64,000 nt of DNA from a virus. Under the pieces are notes generated by a model. That model made no database searches, was not told where the DNA came from, and saw only the letters and a list, made by a program, of their open reading frames with translations. Where the stretch lies: IMG/VR virus record IMGVR_UViG_3300035696_000007, positions 96,001-160,000 of that record; one strand, 5' to 3'. The position numbers were made by a program, and so were the translations under genes. Positions 56,777-64,000 of the stretch are shown here, one piece after another (the stretch's first letter is position 1; every line of letters starts with the position of its first letter).

Positions 56777-57118
56777 ATGAACGCCAAGGCCCTTCTCGAC
56801 CAGCTAGTCGAGATACAGGCGACCCGGAGCATCCCGCGCGAGGCGATGAAGCAGAGGATCGCCCGCGCTTTCCCAAAGCTCTGGATGAAGGACTCGGAGG
56901 AGTTCGACCCCGGAACGAGGGGGGCCATCTGGACGACGGCCGAGGACGCCGACGCCACCGCCTCAGACGGCAACCGCCTCTTCGACGCCTACGCCGAGGA
57001 CTTCAAGGAGACCACCTACGTCCTGGGCGTCCATCGGCAAATGCTCGCCCTCCTCGACGCAGGCGGCTGGTCCGCCGAGTTCTACGACCCAGGCACCGTG
57101 CTGCTCTTCCCCGGCTAG
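56777..57118 (+). CDS. Small late protein with LLDQLVE motif
   Basis: MNAKALLDQLVE; W.AEFYDPGT. Confidence 0.6.
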   Translation: MNAKALLDQLVEIQATRSIPREAMKQRIARAFPKLWMKDSEEFDPGTRGAIWTTAEDADATASDGNRLFDAYAEDFKETTYVLGVHRQMLALLDAGGWSAEFYDPGTVLLFPG

Positions 57119-57759
57119 GCCGGAAGAACGAACGGCAGGTGCTGCGGGTCGCGGGCGTCGCGCAGCCGGATAATGACGGGCATGGTCGGCGGCGCCTTCG
57201 GGGCGCGCCGGAGCTTGAGGCCAACCTGGTGCGGCAGGCGGTCCCCCTTGAGCGTGTTGGTGGCCTTGCGGGTGACGACGACGTTCTCCCAGACGGTCTT
57301 GCCGCCGGAGTGGCGGGAGACGACGTGGTCGATGTTCCACTCGCCCGGCTGGAGCCGGCGGTCGTCCGCCGCGTACTGGTCGAGGCCGTGGTCGCGCTCG
57401 TAGACGGCCTTCGGCGTGCACTTGACCGTGCGCACCGGGACCTTGTCGTAGTGCTGGCAGATGAGGACCATCGGGACGCGCACGCGCTGGTGCGCGGCCT
57501 GGAGCCAGAGGTCGAACGGGCGGATCGGGAGCTTCAGCCAGTCCCCCCAGGCGGTCGGGATCGAGCGAACCGGGCGCAGGTAGTCGAACTCGCCGTCGGC
57601 GCCGACGGCGAACTCCAGGTCCATGGCGAACTTCGCCGGGCCCCGGCCCATCAGGCCGCCGTTCATGTCGACGATGGCCTGCCGGACCGTGCGCCAGCCG
57701 ATGGCCCGCCAGTGACGGTTCAGGGAGAGGACGATTGGCTTGTCGAGATCCGCGAACAT
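57115..57759 (-). CDS. HNH endonuclease (McrA-like)
   Basis: VLSLNRHW, VYERD..QY, NIDHVVSRHSGG..WENVV..N..KGD. Confidence 0.85.
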   Translation of the reverse strand: MFADLDKPIVLSLNRHWRAIGWRTVRQAIVDMNGGLMGRGPAKFAMDLEFAVGADGEFDYLRPVRSIPTAWGDWLKLPIRPFDLWLQAAHQRVRVPMVLICQHYDKVPVRTVKCTPKAVYERDHGLDQYAADDRRLQPGEWNIDHVVSRHSGGKTVWENVVVTRKATNTLKGDRLPHQVGLKLRRAPKAPPTMPVIIRLRDARDPQHLPFVLPA

Positions 57760-57802: not shown

Positions 57803-57897
57803 TGGCGGAGGCGTGCGGTTCCGCCCCGCGCCGGGCTTGACCTCGGTCCCGGGTTAGCAACCCGGTCGGACTTCTGGATGTCCTGCTTACTGCCTCC
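57803..57897 (-). tRNA. tRNA-Ser(GCU), atypical 8/4 fold
   Basis: CCGGG-TTGCTAA-CCCGG; long V arm; G73-CCA. Confidence 0.7.
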
Positions 57898-57903
57898 GAA
57901 AGA

Positions 57904-57990
57904 TGGCGGAAGGCGATGGAGTTGCGCCATTGTCCTTGCGGGCACTGCGGTTTTCGAGACCGTTCGAGGAGACTACCCTCAGCGCCTTCC
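57904..57990 (-). tRNA. tRNA-Ser(CGA), 8/4 fold
   Basis: GGAAGGCG/CGCCTTCC acceptor; CTCGAAA loop; CCA. Confidence 0.8.
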
Positions 57991-58004
57991 GAAAATGGTA
58001 TTAT

Positions 58005-58036
58005 TTAGGCTTATCACACTAGATGAGTTACTAATA
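58005..58036. repeat. 32-bp AT-rich site, copy 2
   Basis: TTAGGCTTATCA-CACTAG-ATGAGTTACTAATA. Confidence 0.7.
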
Positions 58037-58038
58037 GA

Positions 58039-58126
58039 TGGCGGAGGGCGGAGATCTCGCGTCCCAGCGGCTCGCGCCGCCCCATGAGCTTCCAACTCAG
58101 GCCGACCCTCGGCCGGTTCACCCTCC
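58039..58126 (-). tRNA. tRNA-Ser(GGA), 8/4 fold
   Basis: GGAGGGTG/CGCCCTCC acceptor; TTGGAAG loop; CCA. Confidence 0.8.
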
Positions 58127-58409
58127 GAAAAGGAAATCGTTGACAAAACCGCGCCGGGAACAATCGGTGGTCGCGGGGATGTTTACGAAATCATGGTGGC
58201 CCGGCAGCTGGCTCGTGCGCGTCTCGGCCCGGAAGAAGGTCGTGCGCAGCTTCCAGTGCCTGACCTTCGACGACGCGAGGCTGGAGGCCTCCAAGGCCGT
58301 GAACGCCCGGCGCCTGCGCAGGCACCCGCTGCCGACGGCCGTCACCGTGGCGCTGATCGAGGGGCCGGGCCGGACGAGCCCGGAGATGCCCCTCTTCAGC
58401 GGCGGAAAG

Positions 58410-58485
58410 TGGTCCCCCCGCCCGGATTCGCGCCGGGATCTGCGCCTTAGGACGACGCGGCCCTGTCTAGTTGGACGACGGGGAG
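58410..58485 (-). tRNA. tRNA-Arg(CCU)
   Basis: GCGTC-GTCCTAA-GGCGC; CCA. Confidence 0.85.
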
Positions 58486-58486
58486 A

Positions 58487-58562
58487 TGGTAGGGGCGGTG
58501 GGACTCCCACCCACACTATGCCGGGTTCGTAGCCCGGGTGACTAATAATTGCCGACGCCCCC
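58487..58562 (-). tRNA. tRNA-Arg(ACG)
   Basis: CCGGG-CTACGAA-CCCGG; CCA. Confidence 0.85.
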
Positions 58563-58586
58563 AAGATTGAAAAAGGTAGTTACGGC

Positions 58587-59009
58587 ATGAACAAGAGCCG
58601 ACGGGTGATCAGCCAGCTGACGGAAGCCGGGCCGGACCAGGGACAGAAGCCCGACGCCCTCGCGGCACTGGTGGCCTTCGCCAAAGAGGTGGTCGAGGCG
58701 TTCGAGGAGCACGAGTCCGGCGACCTCAACGACATCCCGGCGGACATCGTCATCGAGCGCGGCCGGGCCGCGCTGAAGCTGGCCGGCGCGGACGTGTCCA
58801 GCCTGCAGAAGTACAAGGTCGAGCAGCTCTTCGGCGGCGACTGGGGCGACCCGCAGTGGGAGGAGAACGAACACCCCATGCGCTTCGACACCGAGGAGGA
58901 GGCCTGGGTGGAGGTCGACGAGTTCCTCGCCGACGCGGCGGCCGCCGCGGAGGCCGGGCACATGGCGGCGGGGTTCAGCCGGGACGAGTTCCGGGTCGTC
59001 CCCGCCTGA
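58587..59009 (+). CDS. Acidic small late protein (VISQLTE motif)
   Basis: TAGTTA-N4-ATG. Confidence 0.65.
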   Translation: MNKSRRVISQLTEAGPDQGQKPDALAALVAFAKEVVEAFEEHESGDLNDIPADIVIERGRAALKLAGADVSSLQKYKVEQLFGGDWGDPQWEENEHPMRFDTEEEAWVEVDEFLADAAAAAEAGHMAAGFSRDEFRVVPA

Positions 59010-59012
59010 GAG

Positions 59013-59088
59013 TGGACCCCGCGGCGGGATTCGCACCCGCACCACCGGCCTTAGAACGACCGGGCGCTGTCTGTTACACCACGCGGGG
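59013..59088 (-). tRNA. tRNA-Arg(UCU)
   Basis: CGGTC-GTTCTAA-GGCCG; CCA. Confidence 0.8.
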
Positions 59089-59104
59089 AAGGGGTACTTA
59101 GGCC

Positions 59105-59341
59105 ATGAAGAGCGCCGTCGAGAGGCTGCTGGAGGACGACCGGCAACCGTGGAGCCACGAGAACACGGTCAACGCCATCGTCGGCTCGTTCGTCGGCTTC
59201 GACTTGGACGCCAGCGTCGCCAGGCTGCGCGTCCTCCTGGCCAAGGTGCCCGACCCGCTGCTGCGCCAGGTCTACGACGCGATGCACGCGGGCGAGGAGG
59301 ACACCCTCGCGAGGGGCCCCTACCGGTTCACCGACAAGTGA
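59105..59341 (+). CDS. Small late protein (AVERLLE motif)
   Basis: TACTTA-N4-ATG. Confidence 0.65.
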   Translation: MKSAVERLLEDDRQPWSHENTVNAIVGSFVGFDLDASVARLRVLLAKVPDPLLRQVYDAMHAGEEDTLARGPYRFTDK

Positions 59342-59342
59342 G

Positions 59343-59416
59343 TGGTCGCCCCGCCGGGAATCCCACCCGGGACGCGGCCTTCGGAGGGCCGCATGATATG
59401 GCTTCACCACGGGGCG
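59343..59416 (-). tRNA. tRNA-Arg(CCG)
   Basis: CGGCC-CTCCGAA-GGCCG; CCA. Confidence 0.85.
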
Positions 59417-59420
59417 AAAT

Positions 59421-59497
59421 TGGGGCGATCGACGGGGCTTGCACCCGCAACCCGCGGGCTCACAACCCGCTGCTCTGCTGATTGAGCTACGACCGCC
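59421..59497 (-). tRNA. tRNA-His(GUG)
   Basis: G-1:C73; GCGGG-TTGTGAG-CCCGC. Confidence 0.9.
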
Positions 59498-59498
59498 G

Positions 59499-59573
59499 TG
59501 GGGCCTCAGTGGGGATTTGCGCCCCCCTGTCCGATTTACAAAATCGGTCCCTCGCTGCCTAGGGGTCTGAGGC
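59499..59573 (-). tRNA. tRNA-Thr(UGU)
   Basis: CCGAT-TTTGTAA-ATCGG; CCA. Confidence 0.85.
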
Positions 59574-59596
59574 GAAGTCGAAGTTGTAGTTAAGGC

Positions 59597-59917
59597 ATGG
59601 AAAAGACTCCTGCACCGAAGCCGAAGCTGCGTGGAACCATGGCGCCGGGTTCCGCCCTCCTCAGCCTTGTCGCCGACATCGAGGCGATGCAGACCAATGT
59701 CCCCGACGAATATGAGGGGGATGCGGCTGACCGCGGCTGGTTCGGCCCCTTCGAAACAGGGGTGTCCGCGTACGAGCGGGGCCACTTCATCCTGTGGCCC
59801 AACCTTGAAATCCTTCTGGTGCAAGCCAAGGCGGCCCTGGAGGCGACCAAACCAAGAGGCTCCGCCGGCCCGGTCGAATCCAAAGCCTCCCGCCTCGTCG
59901 ACAGGCTACTCGAATGA
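59597..59917 (+). CDS. Small late protein (C-term LVDRLLE)
   Basis: TAGTTA-N4-ATG. Confidence 0.65.
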   Translation: MEKTPAPKPKLRGTMAPGSALLSLVADIEAMQTNVPDEYEGDAADRGWFGPFETGVSAYERGHFILWPNLEILLVQAKAALEATKPRGSAGPVESKASRLVDRLLE

Positions 59918-60399
59918 GCCACCGTTTCATCCTTTTCGGCGGCGGGTCTGGGAACGTCTACGGCGTCAGCGACGCCGCGAGCTTCGAGGAGGCGTGGAAG
60001 GAGATCCTGGCGGCGGGCGGGCCGCTGGGCTACTCGGCTGGCGGGGAGCCCGGGGGCGAGGTCGAGCGCGAGTGGCCCGAGTTCGACGACATGTCGGTGA
60101 TGCTCGGGGGCGCGGAGATCGAGAAAAAGGACGGCTACTGGCTGATCACCGCCCGCGACTCGGACGAGGGCCAGTTCGGACTGCTGGACGCCCAGTCCGC
60201 CAACTCGGCGGTGCAAAAGGAGATCGAGGATCTCGGCCTGCAGAAGTACGCCGACGAGTTCGTCGCCGAGAAGGCCGCGCTGGACGCCGAGGCCGAGGAC
60301 GAGATGCACCGCCAGGCGGTCTACGCGCAGGCGCCGCAGCACGAGTCGGTCAAGGCGGCCGCGAAACGGCTGGTCGACGCGCTGCTCGGCGAGGCCTGA
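59914..60399 (+). CDS. Acidic late protein (C-term LVDALLGEA)
   Basis: ATGA overlap with upstream gene. Confidence 0.65.
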   Translation: MSHRFILFGGGSGNVYGVSDAASFEEAWKEILAAGGPLGYSAGGEPGGEVEREWPEFDDMSVMLGGAEIEKKDGYWLITARDSDEGQFGLLDAQSANSAVQKEIEDLGLQKYADEFVAEKAALDAEAEDEMHRQAVYAQAPQHESVKAAAKRLVDALLGEA

Positions 60400-60402
60400 A
60401 AG

Positions 60403-60478
60403 TGGGGCCACCGACCCGAGTCGCACGGGCAACGTCCTGTTTACGGAACAGGTGCTCTGCTGATTGAGCTACGGCGGC
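60403..60478 (-). tRNA. tRNA-Thr(CGU)
   Basis: CCTGT-TCCGTAA-ACAGG. Confidence 0.85.
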
Positions 60479-60483
60479 GAGAT

Positions 60484-60558
60484 TGGTAGGCGCGGGAGGG
60501 GTTTCGCCTCCACCCAAGGGATTATGGGTCCCCTGCTCTGAGATTGAGCTACGCGCCC
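60484..60558 (-). tRNA. tRNA(CAU), Ile2 or Met
   Basis: GGGGA-CCCATAA-TCCCT. Confidence 0.8.
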
Positions 60559-60562
60559 GAAG

Positions 60563-60648
60563 TGGTGCGGCCGGCGCGAATCGCACGCGCACGCCCCGGA
60601 GGGCAGCGGGGTTTAGGCCCGCCGCGTCTGCTGTTCCGCCACGGCCGC
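60563..60648 (-). tRNA. tRNA-Leu(UAA)
   Basis: GCGGG-CCTAAAC-CCCGC; long V arm; A73. Confidence 0.85.
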
Positions 60649-60653
60649 GAAGT

Positions 60654-60737
60654 TGGTGGGGGCGGAGGGGGTTGCACCCTCATGCCTCGCGGCCGGGGGT
60701 TTTGGGTCCCCTGCGTATGCTGTTCCGCCACGCCCCC
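60654..60737 (-). tRNA. tRNA-Leu(CAA)
   Basis: CCCAAAA loop; long V arm. Confidence 0.85.
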
Positions 60738-60742
60738 GAGAT

Positions 60743-60819
60743 TGGCGGCGGCGACGGGAGTTGCACCCGCATTTCACCGGCTGAGAACCGGGGTTCCTAG
60801 GCTGTTAGAAGACGCCGCC
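60743..60819 (-). tRNA. tRNA-Glu(CUC)
   Basis: CCGG-TTCTCAG-CCGG. Confidence 0.85.
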
Positions 60820-60826
60820 ATGAAAT

Positions 60827-60902
60827 TGGCCGCCCCGACGGGATTCCCACCCGTGTCGCAGGCTTGAAGGGCCCGCATCCTGGGATGCTAGAAGACGGGG
60901 CG
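60827..60902 (-). tRNA. tRNA-Glu(UUC)
   Basis: CGGGC-CCTTCAA-GCCTG. Confidence 0.85.
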
Positions 60903-60905
60903 AAA

Positions 60906-60990
60906 TGGTACGGGTAGAGGGACTCGCACCCCCATGCCTTGCGGCGCCGCCTTCTGAGGGCGGTGTGTCTGCTGATTCCACCATACCCGC
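60906..60990 (-). tRNA. tRNA-Leu(CAG)
   Basis: CCGCC-CTCAGAA-GGCGG. Confidence 0.9.
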
Positions 60991-60996
60991 GTGAAA

Positions 60997-61254
60997 CTAT
61001 TCGGCCATCGCCCTGCGGATCGCGGCGAGCGCGGCCGGGTCCCCGGCCTTGGCCCTCTTGGCGAACAGGGCGAACGAGGTCCCCCTGACGGCGTCGGTGA
61101 CCGGCTTCCGGCCGTGGAGCCTCTGGAGGTCGAGCTCGGCGGCGCGGCGGGCGACTCTCTCGCCGTAGGCGTCGCGCAGCCACCGCACGGCGTCCACCGT
61201 GCTGCCCTCCTCCCTGGGCCTGGCCAGGGCGTCGGCTATCCTGACGAGCCTCAT
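60997..61254 (-). CDS. Small late protein
   Basis: TACTTA-N4-ATG. Confidence 0.55.
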   Translation of the reverse strand: MRLVRIADALARPREEGSTVDAVRWLRDAYGERVARRAAELDLQRLHGRKPVTDAVRGTSFALFAKRAKAGDPAALAAIRRAMAE

Positions 61255-61266
61255 GCCCTAAGTAAA

Positions 61267-61351
61267 TGGTGCGGTCAGGGGGAGTCGCACCCCCACGGGT
61301 CACCCCACCGGCCCCTCAAGCCGGCGCGTCTGCTGGTTCCGCCATGACCGC
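61267..61351 (-). tRNA. tRNA-Leu(GAG)
   Basis: CCGGC-TTGAGGG-GCCGG. Confidence 0.9.
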
Positions 61352-61361
61352 GAAAAATCGT

Positions 61362-61625
61362 TCAGCCCCGGACGTGGTACTCGATGCGCAGCCGGGCCCT
61401 GTCCTCCGCCGAAACGCACTCCCAGCACTCCACCTGGCCGGGGAAGAATACCCGCACGGGCAGGTCCTCGGGGTAGTCGCCCTTCATCTCGACGAAGACG
61501 GTGTGGCAGCGCTTCTCGGCGTCCCAGAGGTTCAGCTGGGCCGCGCACCCCGAAAGGAGCCGCCCGCCGACTTTGAACCTGATTTTGATGCCGTGCGGCG
61601 GCAGGAGCCTGTTGATGCTGATCAT
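61362..61625 (-). CDS. Hypothetical protein
   Basis: GTTCT-N7-ATG. Confidence 0.55.
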   Translation of the reverse strand: MISINRLLPPHGIKIRFKVGGRLLSGCAAQLNLWDAEKRCHTVFVEMKGDYPEDLPVRVFFPGQVECWECVSAEDRARLRIEYHVRG

Positions 61626-61641
61626 GCCCGTAAGAACAAAG

Positions 61642-61717
61642 TGGGGCCTCCTGTCGGATTTGCGCCGACCGTCCTCCCCTTACCAAGGGGTAGCATCGCT
61701 GCCTATGCTTAGGAGGC
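61642..61717 (-). tRNA. tRNA-Thr(GGU)
   Basis: CCCC-TTGGTAA-GGGG. Confidence 0.85.
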
Positions 61718-61718
61718 G

Positions 61719-61795
61719 TGGTAGCACCGGTCGGATTTGCGCCGACGACCTTCCCCTTATGAGGGGGCTGCGCTGGCTGGCTGCGCCACGGTGCC
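61719..61795 (-). tRNA. tRNA-Met(CAU)
   Basis: CCCC-CTCATAA-GGGG; GGC..GCT A73. Confidence 0.85.
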
Positions 61796-61802
61796 ATGAA
61801 GT

Positions 61803-61881
61803 TGGTGGGGGCCGAGGCAGTTGCAGCCTCACGGATGGTCCGGGTAAGGGCCGGGTGCCCGTCTACTGTGGCTTGACCCCC
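61803..61881 (-). tRNA. tRNA-Lys(CUU)
   Basis: CCGG-CCCTTAC-CCGG; CCA. Confidence 0.75.
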
Positions 61882-61888
61882 GAAAGTT

Positions 61889-62098
61889 TTCCAGCCCGAG
61901 CGTAGCCGCGATTCTGTTTTATCCGCACATCACTCTAGGCCGCTACCATGCCCTCTTGACGGGAAGCACTACCCTGGGGCCCTTTTGCGTTGCAGCTACC
62001 ATGCGGTGTTGGCGGGCCCGCGCCCTCCCGATCGGCTGCTTTGCTGTCGCGAACTTCCTCCGGGGACGAGCCCCGGCGTGCAGTCCTCTTGGCTGGAA
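61889..62098 (-). ncRNA. rnpB: Miniature RNase P RNA (catalytic domain, nearly no S-domain)
   Basis: P1 TTCCAGCC/GGCTGGAA; GAGGAAGTTCGCGA pairs with ACAGAATCGCGGCTA (P4 with bulged U); P5 CAGC/GCTG+CAA; P6 AAGCA/TGCTT; L15 GGTA; CCTAGAGTGATG. Confidence 0.88.
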
Positions 62099-62105
62099 TC
62101 GAAAG

Positions 62106-62180
62106 TGGCTGGGGCGGCAGGATTCGCGCCTGCGCCATCGGGGTTCAAGGCCCCGCGTGCTGCTGTTACACCACGCCCCA
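62106..62180 (-). tRNA. tRNA-Gln(UUG)
   Basis: CGGGG-CCTTGAA-CCCCG; U1-A72, G73. Confidence 0.88.
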
Positions 62181-62200
62181 AAAAGCTGTTCTGACGAGGC

Positions 62201-62836
62201 ATGGTCGACTACTCGACGATCCCCGCCTCCTGCCAGATCCCCGGCCTGGCGGGCATCTACCGGAAGTGGCTCGCGCCCGCGGAGACGGGCGCCTTCGTCG
62301 AGGTGGGGGCCTACAGCGGCATCGCCTACAGCAACACCTACTGCTTCTGCCTCGCGGGCTGGCGCGGGCTGCAGATCGAGCCGCACCCCGCGACCTTCGC
62401 CTCGCTGCTGGAGAACATGCGGCCCTTCCCGAACGTCGCCTGCGAGCAGGTGGCCTGCTCGGACTGCGACGGGGAGGCGAGGCTGTACGACATGGGGGAG
62501 TGCTCCACGCTCGTGCTGGACGAGAACGCGCGGGCCTGGGGCTGCCGCGAGGACCGGTTCATCGTGGTCAGGACGACCCGGCTGGACGGGCTGCTGGAGA
62601 GGCACGCCATCCCGCCCGGCTTCGAGGTGCTGGTCGTCGACGTCGAGGGGGCGGAGCTGTCGGTGCTGGCCGGGCTCGACCTGCGGCGGTGGCGCCCGAG
62701 GATGGCGATCGTGGAGACGCACGAGAAGCACCCGAGCATCCTACACCCCAACGCCTGGGCCATCACCAAGCACTTTGAGGACCGGGGCTACTGCAAGGTC
62801 TACGCCGACCACATCAACAGCATCTTCGCCCGCTGA
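62201..62836 (+). CDS. FkbM-family methyltransferase
   Basis: FVEVGAYSG..SNT, GWRGLQIEP, VDVEGAE..VLAG. Confidence 0.88.
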   Translation: MVDYSTIPASCQIPGLAGIYRKWLAPAETGAFVEVGAYSGIAYSNTYCFCLAGWRGLQIEPHPATFASLLENMRPFPNVACEQVACSDCDGEARLYDMGECSTLVLDENARAWGCREDRFIVVRTTRLDGLLERHAIPPGFEVLVVDVEGAELSVLAGLDLRRWRPRMAIVETHEKHPSILHPNAWAITKHFEDRGYCKVYADHINSIFAR

Positions 62837-62839
62837 AAC

Positions 62840-62915
62840 TGGTGGAGGTGGCGGGATTCGCACCCGCGGCCTACGCGATGCCATCGCGCCGCTCTGCTGG
62901 CTGAGCTACACCCCC
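62840..62915 (-). tRNA. tRNA-Ala(GGC)
   Basis: G3:U70; ATGGCAT loop. Confidence 0.9.
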
Positions 62916-62964
62916 GAAAAAGTTGATCCAAGCAGCCGCGCTTAGAGTTCTTGTTTACATTCCC

Positions 62965-63360
62965 ATGAACACGAAACAGACGCTGCAGACACTGTTGAGC
63001 TACTACACGGCGACCCGCAAGATCGGCCACACCCGCGCGATGCTTGCCGGGGCGCAGAATACAGATGGTTGTCTTATTCTCACCGGCGTGGATGACATCG
63101 CCCTGACTCCCCCCAAAGGCGCCTCGTGCGTCAACGTCGTCTATGACGACAATCTGGTCCAACACTTCGTGGGTGTGCGCAAGCCCATGCTAGTGGACAA
63201 CTCCGCCATCGAGCACATCCTGCGCACGTCGCTGGCCGAGATCACCCGGCTGGAGACCCACGTCAAGCGGCTGAAGACCGAGAAGGCGCACCTGGCGCAG
63301 GGCAGACCCGGCCAGATCCCGGCCGAGGCCCCGGCGGCCCCCGGCGAGCTGCCGGCCTGA
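62965..63360 (+). CDS. Hypothetical protein
   Basis: Clean ORF after GTTCT; RKIGHT, LVDNSA. Confidence 0.55.
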   Translation: MNTKQTLQTLLSYYTATRKIGHTRAMLAGAQNTDGCLILTGVDDIALTPPKGASCVNVVYDDNLVQHFVGVRKPMLVDNSAIEHILRTSLAEITRLETHVKRLKTEKAHLAQGRPGQIPAEAPAAPGELPA

Positions 63361-63363
63361 AAG

Positions 63364-63438
63364 TGGCTGCGGCGACTGGCTACGCTCCAGTGACTTCGGT
63401 TTCAGAGACCGACGTGTTACTAGCTACACCACACCGCA
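63364..63438 (-). tRNA. tRNA-Gln(CUG)
   Basis: TCGGT-CTCTGAA-ACCGA. Confidence 0.85.
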
Positions 63439-63480
63439 AAGGAGTCTTCTTCACCGTCCGAGAACAGACCGTGCGTAGAT

Positions 63481-63557
63481 TGGTCGGCCCGGTGGGATTC
63501 GCACCCACGGTCTCTTGCTCCCGAAGCAAGCGCGATACTAGGCTACGCCACGGGCCG
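63481..63557 (-). tRNA. tRNA-Pro(CGG)
   Basis: CTTGC-TTCGGGA-GCAAG; C1-G72. Confidence 0.9.
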
Positions 63558-63565
63558 AACGGAAA

Positions 63566-63641
63566 TGGTGGTCGGCGGGGGACTCGCACCCCCGGTCCCC
63601 TGCATGTCGCGCAGGTGCCTTGGCTGCTGGGCTAGCCGACC
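63566..63641 (-). tRNA. tRNA-Val(GAC)
   Basis: CCTGC-GCGACAT-GCAGG. Confidence 0.85.
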
Positions 63642-63648
63642 GGAAAGC

Positions 63649-63725
63649 TGGTCGGGCCGGCGGGATTCGCACCCGCGGTCTCCTGCACCCCATGCAGGCG
63701 CGATGCTAGGCTACGCTACGGCCCG
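63649..63725 (-). tRNA. tRNA-Pro(GGG)
   Basis: CCTGC-ATGGGGT-GCAGG. Confidence 0.9.
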
Positions 63726-63730
63726 GAAGA

Positions 63731-63805
63731 TGGCTGCTCGGGCAGGACTCGCACCTGCAACCCTGGTGTTAACAGCACCCCGCTCTACTTTGGAGCTACC
63801 GAGCA
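63731..63805 (-). tRNA. tRNA-Asn(GUU)
   Basis: GGTG-CTGTTAA-CACC; G73. Confidence 0.9.
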
Positions 63806-63813
63806 ATGGAAAG

Positions 63814-63942
63814 TGGTGCCGGCGCTTGGAGTCGAACCAAGTCTAGTCTATTAGCAGTAGAAGTAACCCTCGTCATCACTGCGCCTTGCGACGAGAATAG
63901 GAGACCCGGGTGTTTTCTGTGCTACCGTTACACTACACCGGC
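63814..63942 (-). ncRNA. tRNA-like RNA with about 55-nt insertion between D and anticodon arms (Y-RNA/Yrl-like candidate)
   Basis: GCCGGTG/CGCCGGC-ACCA acceptor, canonical GG D-loop and TTCGA T-loop, TCTA-CTGCTAA-TAGA arm. Confidence 0.6.
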
Positions 63943-64000
63943 AGAAGCCTCCCGGGAGGAAGTCGAGTAGGGGTTTGGCCGGGTTTGCGGCCCGGTGCCT

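Follow-up and report, generated by a model that had tools for sequence, protein, structure and literature searches.

The window analyzed here, a 64,000-nucleotide (nt) stretch of viral DNA (IMG/VR record IMGVR_UViG_3300035696_000007), carries on its minus strand a long array of tRNA genes in which every tRNA has an altered elbow. Inside this array is a gene for a 210-nt RNA (the mini RNase P RNA) that is a member of the RNase P family by architecture, not by model score (Table 1). It corresponds to bases 15584-79583, read on the reverse strand, of an 82.8-kb viral record with 67% GC, a T4-like portal gene and a completeness of about 37% (CheckV). The phage is a jumbo-type phage from peat. DNA nearly identical to it is present in several peat metagenomes; the sequencing runs that contain it are DNA sets from such metagenomes, with no RNA set listed among them. 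The 27 genes in the window are its share of an array of about 40 genes that runs past position 64000, and across the whole array of the record each of the 20 amino acids has at least one tRNA.

The mini RNase P RNA begins 8 nt past the CCA of tRNA-Gln(UUG) and ends 7 nt ahead of the next tRNA-like gene. Its P3 hairpin ends in GAGGAAGUUCGCG. Near the 3' end, GCCUAGAGUGAUG is followed by AUAAAACAGAAUCGCGGCUAC, and CGCGGCU pairs with AG(U)UCGCG to give P4 with a bulged U. P5 is made of CAGC and GCUG, and the P16/P17 loop, UGCUU, is able to pair with AAGCA just 3' of P5 to give P6. J5/15 contains CAA, which we take to be the equivalent of A248/A249. GGU, the CCA-binding motif of type A RNase P RNAs, lies in J16/15 (61945-61947), and AUGGUA precedes the 3' strand of P15. 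The RNA has the RNase P catalytic core, with a bulged-U P4 built from conserved regions (CR) I and V and a P1-P2-P3 framework in which P2 crosses P4. It also has the features that define type A, namely the P6 pseudoknot between J5/7 and the P17 loop, P15-P16-P17 with a GGU internal loop, and the J5/15 adenosines. What it does not have is the specificity domain (S-domain), P7-P14 with the T-stem-loop binding site (TBS). The interval between the P5 strands is 46 nt, whereas all but one of the 67 bacterial rnpB genes examined have 136-195 nt there. It includes a 40-nt remnant in which GGGAG is conserved and which also has a small hairpin and the motif ..ACC. P18 is absent as well, there being no hairpin between the P15 3' strand and CR-IV. 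Minimum free energy folding of a 221-nt stretch gave z = +0.5, a value from which little can be read for a pseudoknotted RNA in GC-rich sequence.

Because no Rfam family matches this RNA, its reality rests on 45 or more homologues and their covariation. The homologues were found with a pattern in which the universal motifs of RNase P are spaced as in the mini RNA (GAGGAAGTYC, 98-128 nt, AGNNNNATG, 5-12 nt, ACAGAANNNNGGCT; about 49 bits). This pattern matched 45 viral contigs, 36 of them distinct and the longest 494 kb. Chance matches are estimated at well under one, an approximate figure since the size of the collection is not known. Another strict pattern (GGCCTAGAGTGATG...TAAAACAGAA) had no matches. 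In a MAFFT alignment of the 36 distinct sequences, 90.2% of helix cells are paired, versus 67.3% in shuffles and 29-44% when the partners are slid. Compensatory changes are present in 23 of 29 pairs, and the covariation score (0.579 versus 0.168) was reached by none of 500 shuffles.

In this alignment P4 required a pseudoknot that crosses P2, the arrangement of genuine RNase P RNA; when the helices were simply nested, pairing fell to 63% overall and both P2 and P4 were mis-paired. As a pseudoknot, P4 is paired in 100% of cells, and its three pairs that are free of the search pattern covary. P2 is paired in 95-97% of cells with compensatory changes in 5-6 of its 6 pairs, and the closing pairs of P3 are 99% paired. 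P1 helices are unrelated in sequence, are found in most members, and average 9.3 bp versus 5.6 bp in shuffles. All five pairs of the P6 pseudoknot show compensatory changes, as do P15 (95-98% paired) and P16 (82%). P17 and the helix of the remnant are weakly supported (53-61% paired, the remnant helix 53%).

A covariance model built from the family, R1, gives the window RNA, itself a training member, a score of 128.8 bits, and it found ten additional copies, none of them among those picked out by the pattern. With these ten included, an R1 alignment of 45 sequences is 86.4% paired versus 59.9% in shuffles, and the nested helices are 82-99% paired with compensatory changes. The invariant columns are GAGGAAGUUC, the CAA of J5/15, AG...AUG and AACAGAA..GGCUA; in the GGU of L15 the G and the U are invariant and the middle G nearly so. 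These are the positions of catalysis and substrate docking. Because of the covarying relatives and these invariant catalytic and docking columns, we consider the window RNA to be a true reduced RNase P RNA.

Most members of the family are found near tRNA genes, with tRNAs in the fetched stretch at 29 of the 36 distinct loci. One copy is in a cultured phage, Stenotrophomonas phage vB_SmaS-DLP_6 (DLP6), where it is unannotated (R1 104 bits, E = 7e-32) and lies in a tRNA cluster between a hypothetical gene and tRNA-Arg (locus L488, 2470-2694; KU682439.2, about 105784-106008). BLAST of another copy (L198) against cultured phages gave no match, and BLAST of the window region against them gave tRNA-Leu matches alone. 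Two loci, L056 and L057, came up as possible homologues when the RNA was compared by BLAST with 37 viral records, and on reading were chance matches. There are also longer forms of 220-275 nt (L224, at G016:C1:15678-15896, and L478, L479 and L487) that keep the bacterial GAGGAAAGUCCGG and have a bigger insert at the S-domain site. They could be intermediate between the full-size RNase P RNA and the mini form.

The mini RNase P RNA can be compared with three known RNAs. With the bacterial type A RNA (E. coli M1, encoded by rnpB; RF00010) it shares the order P1-P2-P3-P4-P5-P6...P15-P16-P17...P2'-P4'-P1', both pseudoknots (P4 and P6), the bulged U in P4, GCAA in J5/15 and GGU ahead of the 3' strand of P15. 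Its motifs have type A counterparts: GAGGAAGUUCGCG corresponds to GAGGAAAGUCCGG, GCCUAGAGUGAUG to GCCUAGAUGAAUG, and ACAGAAUCGCGGCUA to ACAGAACCCGGCUUA. However, type A RNAs are about 350-400 nt long and have a 136-195-nt S-domain and P18, whereas the phage RNA has a P4 that is shorter by one A-U pair, is encoded inside a tRNA array, and is not seen by RF00010. The type T RNA, like the phage RNA, is natural, keeps the catalytic domain (C-domain), has lost most of the S-domain and is missed by the standard models of its domain of life. Type T is archaeal and derived from the archaeal type A, cellular, essential, and works with archaeal proteins and a 3-bp P2; in contrast, the phage RNA resembles the bacterial type A, its P2 has 6 bp, its L15 GGU is the bacterial one, and RF02357 does not match it. 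Lastly, the engineered C-domain of the E. coli RNA, known as Eco CP RPR, has no S-domain yet is catalytic, and retains and drops the same elements as the phage RNA (PMC5839562). It is a laboratory construct, whereas the phage RNA occurs naturally, as a conserved gene that retains a short conserved remnant.

Several results weigh against placing this RNA with RNase P. No Rfam RNase P model (RF00010, RF00011, RF00373 and RF02357) matched, even at E<=10; these searches used the gathering threshold and E<=10 on the window, an 8-kb piece and a 241-nt piece, and RF00010 was also run on the whole record. An nhmmer profile of 67 bacterial C-domains gave the window RNA E = 11 and other members of the mini family borderline scores. 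In the reverse direction, R1 had one weak match, at a 3' end, among 26 bacterial rnpB loci. The homology thus rests on architecture and on the identity and order of motifs, not on a significant model score. In addition, nhmmer with the window RNA as query found no match in the fetched loci. The window RNA belongs to a widespread phage family that appears to derive from the catalytic domain of bacterial type A RNase P RNA. Retained in it are P1-P6 and P15-P17, along with the P4 pseudoknot and its bulged U, the adenosines of J5/15 and the GGU of L15; P7-P14 and P18 have been lost.

Most likely, the mini RNase P RNA is transcribed together with the tRNAs and released by the same cuts that process its neighbors. 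It would then most likely act in catalysis as an RNase P RNA, with the host protein RnpA as its probable partner. The gain would be extra capacity for 5'-end processing of long phage transcripts, with arrays of 20-50 tRNAs made late in infection. We infer both catalysis and the use of host RnpA; no RnpA gene (PF00825) is present in the viral record, itself 37% complete. On its own, the C-domain of the E. coli RNA still cleaves, at a rate about 100-fold below that of the full RNA, and the C5 protein stimulates it; it needs a P6 mimic or P6-like pairing, P18 is dispensable, and it is the S-domain that binds the T-stem-loop (PMC5839562). There is also the natural type T RNase P RNA, without most of its S-domain (PMC3579882). 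Because of these two precedents, activity of the mini RNase P RNA is plausible. That it is independent of the tRNA elbow is unproven, because the 40-nt remnant retains invariant nucleotides. In full-text literature searches we found no published report of a phage-encoded RNase P RNA, and the sole viral RNase-P-like RNA that we met is a camelpox transcript that is inactive in vitro (PMC3001073).

The tRNAs of the array are unusual in a different way. In this stretch ARAGORN reported 16 tRNAs, and the tRNA model of Rfam matched 17. A strict cloverleaf parser (7-bp acceptor stem, D, anticodon and T arms) found 23, and four further irregular or long-arm tRNAs (Glu-UUC at 60902, Arg-ACG at 58562, a Ser-GGA-like tRNA at 58127 and Ser-GCU at 57900) were identified under relaxed rules, by hand and by folding, for a total of 27. 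These tRNAs have a cloverleaf with a 7-bp acceptor stem, an anticodon arm, a 5-bp T stem, a 7-nt T loop and 3' CCA; a 3' NCCA is encoded on every tRNA parsed. They do not have the near-universal elbow of G18, G19, U55 and C56. Position 55 of the T loop is G in 27 of 27 tRNAs, with the T loops UGCRANN, CGCRAAU, AGCGUAG, UGGGANU and CGAAACC. The tRNAs with G55 and C56, the large majority of the set, have AG (A18 G19) in the D loop where the canonical sequence is GG. C56 is retained in 23 tRNAs; the others have G56 (three) or A56 (one), lack AG in the D loop, and have a C or U at position 19 that could pair with position 56.

The change at position 55 and that at position 18 go together in many phages. 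Among 1,928 distinct tRNAs from 318 viral loci, the D loop is GG in 1392 of 1469 tRNAs with U55 and AG only in 362 of 424 tRNAs with G55. Because of these counts, we take A18/G55 to be genuine covariation, neither chance nor decay. The A18/G55 tRNAs look like working tRNAs. Their elbow is an alternative one: a co-varying A18-G55 stands in for the tertiary contact G18-U55, and the pair between 19 and 56 is either preserved or compensated in turn. Compared with the canonical elbow (G18-Psi55, where Psi is pseudouridine, G19-C56 and T54-A58; RF00005), the phage set shares the cloverleaf, the 7-nt T loop, the 19-56 pair and the 54-58 pair, and differs throughout in having G, not U, at 55 and A, not G, at 18. 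The genomic context is that of ordinary phage tRNA arrays. Full-text literature searches found no published description of an A18/G55 tRNA elbow. Two other T-loop variants were seen in viral loci: a C55 class of 35 tRNAs (loci L015-L054 and L241-L473), in which the D loop is always GG, and recurrent T loops with A54 and U58 (AGCGUUA and AUCGUUA), so that the 54-58 pair is swapped as well.

What might favor G55? With G55 no Psi55 is possible, and with C or A at position 54 there is no T54 either. The T-loop defense nuclease CbCash, a CRISPR-associated Schlafen, cuts tRNAs just 5' of U55, and a single mutation of U54 or U55 abolishes cleavage (PMC13462974). Bacterial immunity can thus target the U54-U55 step and be blocked by a change of U55, a pressure of the kind that would favor G55. 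Since G55 takes away both the substrate of the Psi55 synthase and the step cut by CbCash, escape is our best guess. Loss of the U54-U55 site that T-loop nucleases and modification enzymes read is the most likely reason for the gain of G55, and escape from elbow-directed attack is plausible. No CbCash-like nuclease is known for the host of this phage.

The preliminary description had joined the two features of this locus into one system, in which the phage changed the elbow of its tRNAs and for that reason supplies an elbow-independent ribozyme to mature them. Both identifications stand: the rewired elbow is seen in all 27 tRNAs, with the AG D loop in the large majority, and the RNase P RNA with almost no specificity domain, in the same minus-strand array, is supported by its architecture and covarying homologues. 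The coupling is not supported by the distribution. Beside 36 other distinct mini-rnpB genes, 352 of 367 tRNAs called by ARAGORN (96%) have U55 and 13 have G55, nine of them in a single contig, L210. Co-occurrence of G55 arrays and short rnpB genes across phages, the test set beforehand, failed as well. R1 had a match in 8 of the 48 contigs in which two neighboring T arms have G55 (six of the matches strong) and in 4 of the 50 in which two neighboring T arms have U55 (odds ratio 2.3, Fisher p = 0.23); among near-complete genomes the counts were 2 of 15 and 1 of 15. Thirty viral records chosen for an A18/G55 tRNA had one strong R1 match, with none in the six that are at least 90% complete. None of the five searched records with at least three adjacent G55 T-arm pairs, including a complete 275-kb genome, had a mini rnpB detectable with R1. 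Encoded CCA is no simple correlate of mini rnpB either; it is present in 235 of the 367 tRNAs and is all-or-none in each phage.

Relatives of the phage differ from one another in this respect. UGCGANU T loops dominate the array of G003 (238 kb, 96% complete, portal 54% identical), with a tmRNA and YrlA-like RNAs also present, and neither R1 with filters off nor Rfam found an RNase P RNA in this record. A G55 array and a mini rnpB are both present in G080 (225 kb, complete, portal 56% identical), and this mini rnpB is the one nearest to the window's copy. Mini rnpB genes hosted by G55 arrays share no difference in conserved columns from their nearest neighbors in U55 arrays. Other observations pull toward a connection. 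The nearest relatives of the window's mini rnpB (those of G080 and G061, then G041 and L210) are all in G55-rich arrays, and the positive trend would fit a modest link between G55 and mini rnpB, weak or confined to a lineage. These counts also come with many fragmentary records and with ARAGORN calls that under-detect G55 tRNAs (16 of 27 here), and R1 may miss divergent mini RNase P forms. We conclude that these are two separate traits, both carried with large phage tRNA arrays and inherited jointly in only some members of a lineage. They travel together in part of one lineage, but neither trait needs the other.

Our best explanation overall, which we consider probable though well short of assured, is that the phage has an RNase P RNA for its tRNA operon and, separately, an A18/G55 elbow, and that the two are not a co-adapted pair. 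The view that they are matched, host RNase P being poor on G55 elbows and the S-domain-less RNA serving as their maturase, draws on their presence in one operon, on the complete relative that has both along with the most similar mini rnpB, on four other G55-rich arrays with mini rnpB, and on binding of the T-stem-loop by the S-domain (PMC5839562). We consider it unlikely. The tRNAs beside other mini rnpB genes are nearly all canonical, no mini rnpB is detectable in 40 of 48 contigs with G55 pairs, 13 of 15 near-complete ones or G003, the enrichment is not significant, and the copies in G55 arrays have no signature. Furthermore, RNase P reads the elbow mainly through its shape and through stacking on the 19-56 pair, and these tRNAs have kept that pair.

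A slightly better candidate, but still a doubtful one, is that the mini RNA is a decoy or regulator, for example a sponge for host RnpA that stops maturation of host tRNAs, or a structured spacer or processing signal. The viral record has no gene for a protein subunit, and the camelpox RNase-P-like RNA is inactive in vitro (PMC3001073). However, a protein sponge would not need an invariant bulged-U P4, the J5/15 adenosines, the G and U of the L15 GGU, or CR-IV and CR-V, and compensatory changes maintain P6 and P15-P17. It is very improbable that the RNA is a decaying piece of a captured host rnpB and that the G55 tRNAs are degenerating pseudogenes, even though standard tools missed the RNase P RNA and 11 of the 27 tRNAs. 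Conservation already contradicts decay: the same reduced architecture, with compensatory changes, is present in 45 or more contigs that range from 43 to 64% GC, the cloverleaves of the tRNAs are intact, their anticodons make sense for all 20 amino acids and their CCA is encoded, and covariation of positions 18 and 55 is strict across the 1,928 tRNAs.

Several other features of the array and its surroundings were recorded (Table 1). A T-rich leader (ACUUUC, CUUUC or AUUUC) lies just before most of the tRNAs and before the mini RNase P RNA (for example 62099-62105), despite the 67% GC; the 16 nt upstream of tRNA 5' ends were examined. It may be a processing signal, a protein-binding signal or a trace of duplication. 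Small genes, mostly on the opposite strand, are interspersed in the array. One of them encodes an FkbM-family methyltransferase, for which a single viral relative was found (L001, 39% identity), in a stretch with no tRNAs. The RNA at 63822-63950 has an insert of about 60 nt in place of the anticodon arm and, unlike the neighboring A18/G55 tRNAs, a GG D loop. Upstream of the window, the same tRNA array contains a Ro60/Rsr gene (G000:C1:12130-13584), the product of which has a TROVE domain (E = 2e-19) and a vWA domain. Ro60/Y-like RNAs are found alongside the G55 tRNA array of G003 too, where there are weak YrlA (RF02553) matches.

Table 1. Positions of the RNA elements and genes described in the text, in window coordinates.
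Feature	Position	Strand	Basis or remarks
Mini RNase P RNA, 210 nt; type-A-like catalytic domain, almost no S-domain, no P18	61889..62098	-	architecture, homologues, covariation
P1 5' strand UUCCAGCC; partner GGCUGGAA at 61889-61896	62091..62098	-	read directly
P2 5' strand CUGCAC; partner GUGCGG at 61923-61928	62078..62083	-	read directly, covariation
CR-I, J3/4 and P4 5' strand, GAGGAAGUUCGCG, bulged U; pseudoknot partner 61904-61910	62048..62060	-	covariation
P6 5' strand AAGCA (62037-62041) and 40-nt S-domain remnant	61997..62041	-	alignment columns, covariation
J5/15 CAA, P15 CGC/GCG, P16, P17, J16/15	61941..61992	-	invariant columns, compensatory changes
CR-IV-like AGAGUGAUG, P2 3' strand, J2/4 AUAAAACAGAA (CR-V), P4 3' strand CGCGGCU	61904..61936	-	read directly; part fixed by the family search pattern
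tRNA/tRNA-like array, 27 genes, all G55	57806..63805	-	ARAGORN, Rfam, cloverleaf parser, hand reading
Array order: Asn, Pro, Val, Pro, Gln, Ala, Gln, [mini RNase P RNA], odd tRNA-like gene, Met, Thr, Leu, Leu, Glu, Glu, Leu, Leu, CAU, Thr, Thr, His, Arg, Arg, Arg, Arg, Ser, Ser, Ser			
Odd tRNA-like gene	61807-61881	-	acceptor and T arms (UGCAACU) well formed; CCCUUAC in the anticodon loop, which lacks U33; 8-nt variable region
FkbM-family methyltransferase gene, between tRNA-Ala and tRNA-Gln	62201..62836	+	Pfam PF05050, E = 7e-21; GC at third codon positions 0.99
HNH endonuclease gene, directly downstream of the array	57115..57759	-	
tRNA-like/Y-RNA-like hybrid, 129 nt, canonical elbow	63822..63950	-	D loop ..ACGGUAG.., T loop UUCGACU

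In the lineage of this phage (G000, G080, G061, G041 and L210), the G55 tRNAs, the mini RNase P RNA and the Ro60/Y-like RNA could together make up one semi-autonomous tRNA supply. We regard this as a long shot. If it were true, the tRNAs would go unseen by host enzymes and nucleases that read U54-U55, the ribozyme, having no TBS, would tolerate the altered elbow or be tuned to it, and Y-like RNAs with a canonical elbow would still be addressable by host factors.

The proposal that the mini RNase P RNA and the G55 tRNAs make up one system does not hold, and the two are phenomena for separate study. A working alternative to one of the most conserved tertiary contacts in biology, used across whole phage tRNA sets, bears on tRNA folding, on Psi55 and T54 modification, and on phage evasion of tRNA-directed immunity. 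It bears also on tRNA gene finders, since ARAGORN and Rfam missed about 40% of the tRNAs here. A virus-encoded RNase P ribozyme would add a new class to the auxiliary genes of phages. It would serve, too, as a natural experiment on the minimal RNase P RNA in a bacterial cell, as a bacterial-type RNA without its substrate-reading domain, type T being archaeal. With its copy in the cultured phage DLP6 as a laboratory model, the family is directly testable.

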